Source of the DNA: Escherichia coli
GTDB lineage: Bacteria > Pseudomonadota > Gammaproteobacteria > Enterobacterales > Enterobacteriaceae
Length of the DNA: 64,000 nt
Assembly (NCBI RefSeq): GCF_048403405.1
Contig: NZ_CP183129.1
Direction: 5' to 3' (one strand)
Part shown: positions 52,029-52,104 of the stretch, piece by piece
Numbering within the stretch: the stretch's first letter is position 1
Layout of the letters: each line of letters opens with the position of its first letter
Position numbers and translations under genes: made by a program
The notes under the pieces: model-generated
The model's input: only the letters and a program-made list of their open reading frames with translations
The model's database searches: none
What the model was told of the DNA's origin: nothing

Positions 52029-52038
52029 AATATTAACC

Positions 52039-52062
52039 ACTTTAGTTACAACATACTTTATT
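52039..52062 (-). other. Ter replication-fork arrest site (TerB-like) 11 bp upstream of tus
   Basis: Minus strand reads AATAAAGTATGTTGTAACTAAAGT, containing the conserved Ter core GTATGTTGTAACTAAAGT. Confidence 0.8.
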
Positions 52063-52104
52063 TTATAGCACAGTATCGACAGCCTGACCACCGTGCGCAT
52101 AGTG

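Follow-up and report, generated by a model that had tools for sequence, protein, structure and literature searches.

The DNA analysed here is a 64,000-nucleotide stretch of Escherichia coli sequence (contig NZ_CP183129.1; hereafter the window), in which tus (51099..52028, minus strand) encodes the 309-aa DNA replication terminus site-binding protein. Its upstream neighbour on the same strand is rstB (52105..53406; stop codon TGA, 52107..52105), which lies on the side from which blocked forks would arrive. The tus call is supported by the open reading frame, the annotation, and structure and K-12 matches, and a RefSeq genome with 100% identity to this stretch has both genes called in the same way. 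The protein encoded by tus aligns at full length with the Tus chains of PDB entries 1ECR, 2EWJ, 2I05 and 2I06 (E ~1e-202), and is identical to K-12 Tus at 302 of 309 residues, with the changes I23A, H27E, H116R, K119Q, H126R, A221T and N225D. The spacer between the two genes is exactly 76 bp long (52029..52104).

The minus strand of this spacer contains a complete 23-bp Ter site, ATAAAGTATGTTGTAACTAAAGT, registered on G6, with position 1 at 52061 and position 23 at 52039 (the minus-strand letters at 52062..52039 are AATAAAGTATGTTGTAACTAAAGT). The G·C(6) base pair, read from the sequence, lies at 52056. Its G belongs to the minus strand and its C(6) to the plus strand, which is displaced at the non-permissive face; in the lock model of the literature, this cytosine is the base that flips into the pocket of Tus (PMC4499146, PMC8707476). 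Core positions 8–19, ATGTTGTAACTA, match exactly at 52054..52043, covering the conserved core of positions 8–18/19, and positions 6–23 are the same as in K-12. The cognate tus gene is present in the same genome, as the adjoining ORF. T23 lies 11 bp upstream of the A of the tus ATG (52028..52026), as described for TerB in the literature (PMC8707476, PMC8347550), and is separated from it by a 10-nt gap, GGTTAATATT (52029..52038), which is the same in all E. coli alleles read. By location the site is thus TerB: it sits in the rstB-tus spacer, about 11 bp before the tus ATG, and overlaps the putative tus promoter described below. Letter by letter it matches the reference 23-mer, AATAAGTATGTTGTAACTAAAGT, at 21 of 23 positions in the G6 register; this mismatch is allelic variation at an orthologous locus, and the site is therefore still TerB by position. 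RefSeq lists TerB as 'none' among the features of all 60 genomes shown, indicating that the standard pipeline leaves Ter sites unannotated.

A Ter-like sequence could arise by chance, or be an unused pseudo-Ter of the kind represented by TerF, TerH and TerJ, and some annotated E. coli Ter-like sequences indeed show no Tus binding in vivo (PMC8707476). The 17-mer GTATGTTGTAACTAAAG occurs once in the window with zero mismatches, whereas shuffled sequences searched with up to three mismatches gave a mean of 0.12 matches, so that the exact match is far beyond chance. Combined with looser core-pattern searches, the 17-mer search found a single Ter site in the window. A looser Ter-core match at 40541-40554 (plus strand), GGAAGTTTTAACGA, carries one mismatch inside the core GTTGTAAC, is at chance level and was discarded. 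Positions 6–23 of the window site are the same as in TerB, which is among the sites with the highest ChIP-seq coverages and blocks forks (PMC8707476, PMC10331603). A scan of species-representative genomes with a pattern combining the Ter core and the tus start returned 55 loci, and the location of a Ter site upstream of tus is conserved in these 55 species loci; their Ter core is invariant, positions 9–19 being fixed by the scan pattern itself. A chance or unused sequence is accordingly extremely improbable. The first-pass annotation had described an unambiguous minus-strand Ter site with the conserved core, placed inside the rstB-tus spacer with its end 11 bp upstream of the tus ATG, and had named it TerB. 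All of this holds, given G6 at 52056, the exact core directly upstream of a gene for a close relative of K-12 Tus, and a sole exact 17-mer match.

Cross-species conservation points to a putative tus promoter just upstream of the Ter site. It would comprise a -35 element, TGGTCA (52085..52090, minus strand), conserved in three genera, and, 17 nt downstream, an extended -10 element, TGc TATAAA (52062..52070, minus strand; TGc at 52070..52068, hexamer at 52067..52062). The layout was parsed in the Escherichia, Citrobacter, Salmonella and Franconibacter loci among the 55. A promoter-like block, TGGTCA-17 nt-TGnTATAAA, is conserved in Escherichia, Citrobacter and Salmonella, its two hexamers being exactly 17 nt apart, with a variable intervening sequence that ends in TGn. 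Across the four genera parsed, the -35-like variants are TGGTCA, TGGTTA and TGGTTG, and the -10-like variants are TATAAA, TATACA and TATATA, with the extended -10 kept as TGnTA(T/C)A.. in all four. Across genera, 3–5 nt separate the -10 from G6, and 8–11 nt separate Ter position 23 from the ATG. A sigma-70 consensus scanner missed the putative tus promoter in the window and in K-12 alike: it accepts only -10 hexamers that end in T, and here the hexamer is TATAAA. A literature search for the tus promoter together with TerB returned no match.

The variable promoter spacer holds eight substitutions relative to K-12 (52075..52084, minus strand). The window spacer, GGCTGTCGATAC, looks closer to those of Escherichia E1V33 and MOD1-EC7003 than to the common E. 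coli spacer, a hint that this segment may be imported or ancestral. A micro-inversion of the K-12 sequence was considered as the source of the cluster and rejected, as the reverse complement, compared by eye, does not match. RNA folding of the rstB-tus spacer was no better than that of shuffled sequences in either the window (z = -0.22) or K-12 (z = +0.64), and for this reason a 7-bp inverted repeat at the rstB stop codon, GCCTGAC/GTCAGGC, was dropped as a feature.

In E. coli K-12, Tus binding and polar fork arrest have been demonstrated for the TerB allele (PMC8707476, PMC4499146, PMC10331603). Orientation of the oligonucleotides used identifies the AATAAG end as the non-permissive face (PMC4499146); a fork arriving from this end frees C(6), while a fork from the opposite side displaces Tus (PMC4499146, PMC8707476). 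In the window the non-permissive end of the Ter site faces rstB. Plus-strand GC skew is positive in seven of eight bins, which implies that the prevailing fork runs towards higher coordinates and reaches the site at its AAAGT, permissive end; the skew and the published polarity (PMC4499146) together give the site the orientation of a fork-trap member. The clockwise fork is the one arrested by the cluster of Ter sites that includes TerB (PMC8707476). By analogy with this published scheme, a Tus monomer produced from the adjoining gene would bind the asymmetric 23-bp site through G6 and core positions 8–19. A fork travelling towards lower coordinates, and so entering from the rstB side, would unwind positions 1–5 and free C(6) (plus strand, 52056), which would then dock in the cytosine pocket of Tus and lock the complex. 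A fork from the tus side would be expected to displace Tus and then pass.

The same site probably also serves as the tus operator. Tus autoregulates by binding TerB in the tus promoter (PMC8707476, PMC8347550), as established in K-12 by Roecklein et al. 1991, 1992 (cited in PMC8707476). In the window, G6 comes 5 nt past the putative -10 element, and from this geometry bound Tus would occlude the promoter and repress its own synthesis.

Alignment with K-12 MG1655 revealed how the window site departs from the reference. The window reads AAAATAAAGTATG where K-12 reads AAAATAAGTATG, corresponding to a 1-bp A insertion, with otherwise no differences from 52074 down to nucleotide 58 of tus. The additional A lies in the A-run directly 5' of G6 (AATAAAGTATG in the window, AATAAGTATG in K-12), giving AAA at Ter positions 3–5 (52057..52059, minus strand) in place of AA; blastn places the insertion gap at 52059. 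In the G6 register, the insertion alters only Ter positions 2 (A to T) and 3 (T to A), and positions 4–23 are the same. The first-pass annotation had given the canonical 23-mer as AATAAGTATG and suspected a one-base difference from it in the flank, outside the critical core. The canonical sequence it gave was right, as judged from the MG1655 alignment and the native TerB oligonucleotide (PMC4499146). The suspected difference is real, although it is a 1-bp insertion that changes positions 2 and 3 rather than a change at one position, and it leaves positions 6 and 8–18 untouched, the set listed as conserved in the supplement of PMC8347550. The alignment to reference TerB which that annotation proposed as a check thus gave no exact identity, with one additional A in the window.

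Assembly errors most commonly take the form of a single-base change in an A-run, and in principle a homopolymer miscount could hide a canonical TerB here. The same extra A was searched for across complete E. coli genomes using a 33-mer query, every 28-nt seed word of which spans the insertion. This +1A allele was found in 268 of 5,426 genomes (~5%), in one copy each and always on the chromosome, and these independent complete genomes come from many laboratories and hosts. It is moreover linked to a divergent tus and spacer haplotype that is present at at least 99% identity in ~153 genomes, and it recurs on a second spacer haplotype. An error of sequencing or assembly is therefore exceedingly unlikely, and the variant is a common natural allele that is not peculiar to the window. 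The extra A looks like a derived slippage event in the A-run. In strain FDAARGOS_1281, which has the second of these two upstream haplotypes, the insertion occurs together with the common spacer, showing that the insertion and the spacer substitutions are separable.

Other TerB alleles vary at the same outer end of the site. The E. coli alleles read were AATAAGTATG (K-12), AATAAGGATG, ATTAAGGATG (e.g. O157:H7), GTTAAGGATG and ATAAAGTATG (window); among these representatives, variation is confined to positions 1–3 and 7, and positions 6 and 8–23 are constant. G at position 7 (GGATG), the state in O157:H7, seems to be a frequent variant. This pattern agrees with published surveys, in which Ter positions 1–5, 7 and 19–23 are variable and expected to contribute little to binding, and phylogroup SNPs in Ter sites fall mostly at those outer positions (PMC8347550); terB itself shows 1–2 SNPs per 23 bp (PMC10331603). 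A description of the +1A indel was not found in the literature text searched, and a gapless 23-bp comparison would show it as two SNPs, inside the reported range. Variation of terB at outer positions across phylogroups is thus already published, and the window site is a known element in a minor natural allele.

The tus gene differs from that of K-12 at 45 of 930 nt (4.8%), compared with a background of 650 differences over ~37 kb of aligned window (1.76%), and 12 of the 45 lie within 41 nt (51929-51969). The next 89 bp (51970-52058), comprising the first 58 nt of tus, the 10-nt gap and Ter positions 4–23, contain no differences at all. The tus locus (51099-52100) is a local hot spot of divergence relative to K-12, and the invariant 89-bp block is flanked by two of the most divergent stretches. 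Over the 1-kb stretch of tus and spacer, 4,210 of 5,423 genomes are only 90–95% identical to the window, which suggests, from sequence comparison, that deep tus allele classes exist in E. coli. The K-12 53-mer TerB context was found exactly in 2,329 of the 5,426 complete genomes.

Several further observations were made in these comparisons. The tus-TerB region has no match in 3 of 5,426 genomes and is present on one record classed as a plasmid. In E. coli KTa005 (NZ_CP147084.1, 2212753-2213136), homology with other strains stops shortly before the -35 (GGTCAAG), and the 150-nt flank examined has no annotated rstB, which suggests a deletion or insertion with an end at the tus promoter. Elsewhere in the window, 27372-27892 gives staggered self-similar blastn matches to the K-12 rsxC region, as tandem-like internal repeats with a period of ~96 nt.

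The effect of the insertion on site function is expected to be neutral or nearly so, as judged from the letters it changes: it alters only the non-conserved positions 2–3 and moves the operator 1 bp from the -10. The opposing view, that in this lineage it significantly alters the set-point of tus autoregulation or how efficiently TerB arrests forks, has several points in its favour. A -10 to G6 gap of 5 nt, at the edge of the 3–5 nt range, was seen only in the +1A allele, whereas K-12, Salmonella and all other Escherichia species have 4 nt. The Ter flank is not wholly inert, since the T7 replisome slows at A(4), ahead of G6 (PMC4499146). The tus locus is also unusually divergent and encodes seven amino-acid changes, and the insertion might be co-adapted with this divergent tus allele.

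Other evidence speaks against this view. Positions 4 and 5 are still A in the +1A allele, in keeping with the identity of positions 4–23, and positions 2–5 (TAAA) match TerE and several outgroup sites. The tus-vicinal sites of E. albertii, Escherichia sp. E1V33, Citrobacter amalonaticus and Franconibacter likewise carry the TAAAG flank. The spacing tolerates change in the other direction, with a 3-nt gap in the Citrobacter freundii group, whose Ter ends AAAAT. The C(6) pocket of Tus is formed by I79, F140, H144 and G149, and R198 and E49 make further contacts. In our reading of the alignment, none of the seven Tus changes falls on any of these residues. Phylogroup variants of Tus are, in addition, mostly solvent-exposed (PMC8347550). 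Finally, the insertion is not confined to one background: it is also combined with another spacer and another Tus variant, which speaks against tight co-adaptation.

We accordingly regard a functionally significant insertion as improbable. The more specific form of this idea is just as improbable: that by shifting the operator and the bases unwound before C(6), the extra A would set a lineage-specific Tus level or TerB arrest efficiency. If it were true, the allele would represent a natural tuning of the fork trap in this lineage. The set-point of repression or the kinetics of the lock may nevertheless be affected to a small, quantitative extent. Taken as a whole, we are highly confident in reading the site as the chromosomal TerB of E. 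coli in a natural +1A allele, which would follow the published scheme of locking and autoregulation and whose insertion is expected to be neutral or nearly so. No observation speaks against this assignment.

The dual role of TerB as fork barrier and tus operator is textbook knowledge, and in that respect the finding matters little. Its practical bearing is on how Ter sites are searched for. The 'canonical' K-12 TerB context is present in less than half of complete E. coli genomes, and scans that use the full K-12 23-mer or a fixed gapless register would be better anchored on G6 and the core.

Among known sites, the closest is K-12 TerB, AATAAGTATGTTGTAACTAAAGT, which has the same locus (rstB-TerB-tus-fumC), orientation and 10-nt gap to the ATG as the window. 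The two share Ter positions 4–23, the -35, the extended -10 and the first 58 nt of tus. The window differs in having one more A, T/A rather than A/T at positions 2/3, a -10 to G6 gap of 5 rather than 4 nt, and the eight promoter-spacer substitutions (52075-52084). Like the window, the other E. coli TerB alleles, AATAAGGATG, ATTAAGGATG and GTTAAGGATG, keep G6 and positions 8–23 constant and change at outer positions; they do so by substitutions at positions 1–3 and 7, whereas the window carries an indel and retains T7. TerE, TTAAAGTATGTTGTAAC..., shares positions 2–18, TAAAGTATGTTGTAACT, with the window and differs from it at positions 1 and 21–23. It begins TTAAAGTATG / TTAAAG (PMC8347550 supplement) and is recognised and bound by Tus (PMC8707476), so that the TAAAG flank of the window occurs in a bound Ter site, although TerE lies at a different locus, in the cluster of opposite polarity and unlinked to tus. 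More broadly, the tus-vicinal Ter sites of Enterobacterales (Toft et al. 2021), considered here in 55 representatives, lie 8–11 nt before the tus ATG and are preceded by a TATAAA-like -10 element. Their flanks and spacing differ by species, and the window site is an E. coli allele inside that range.
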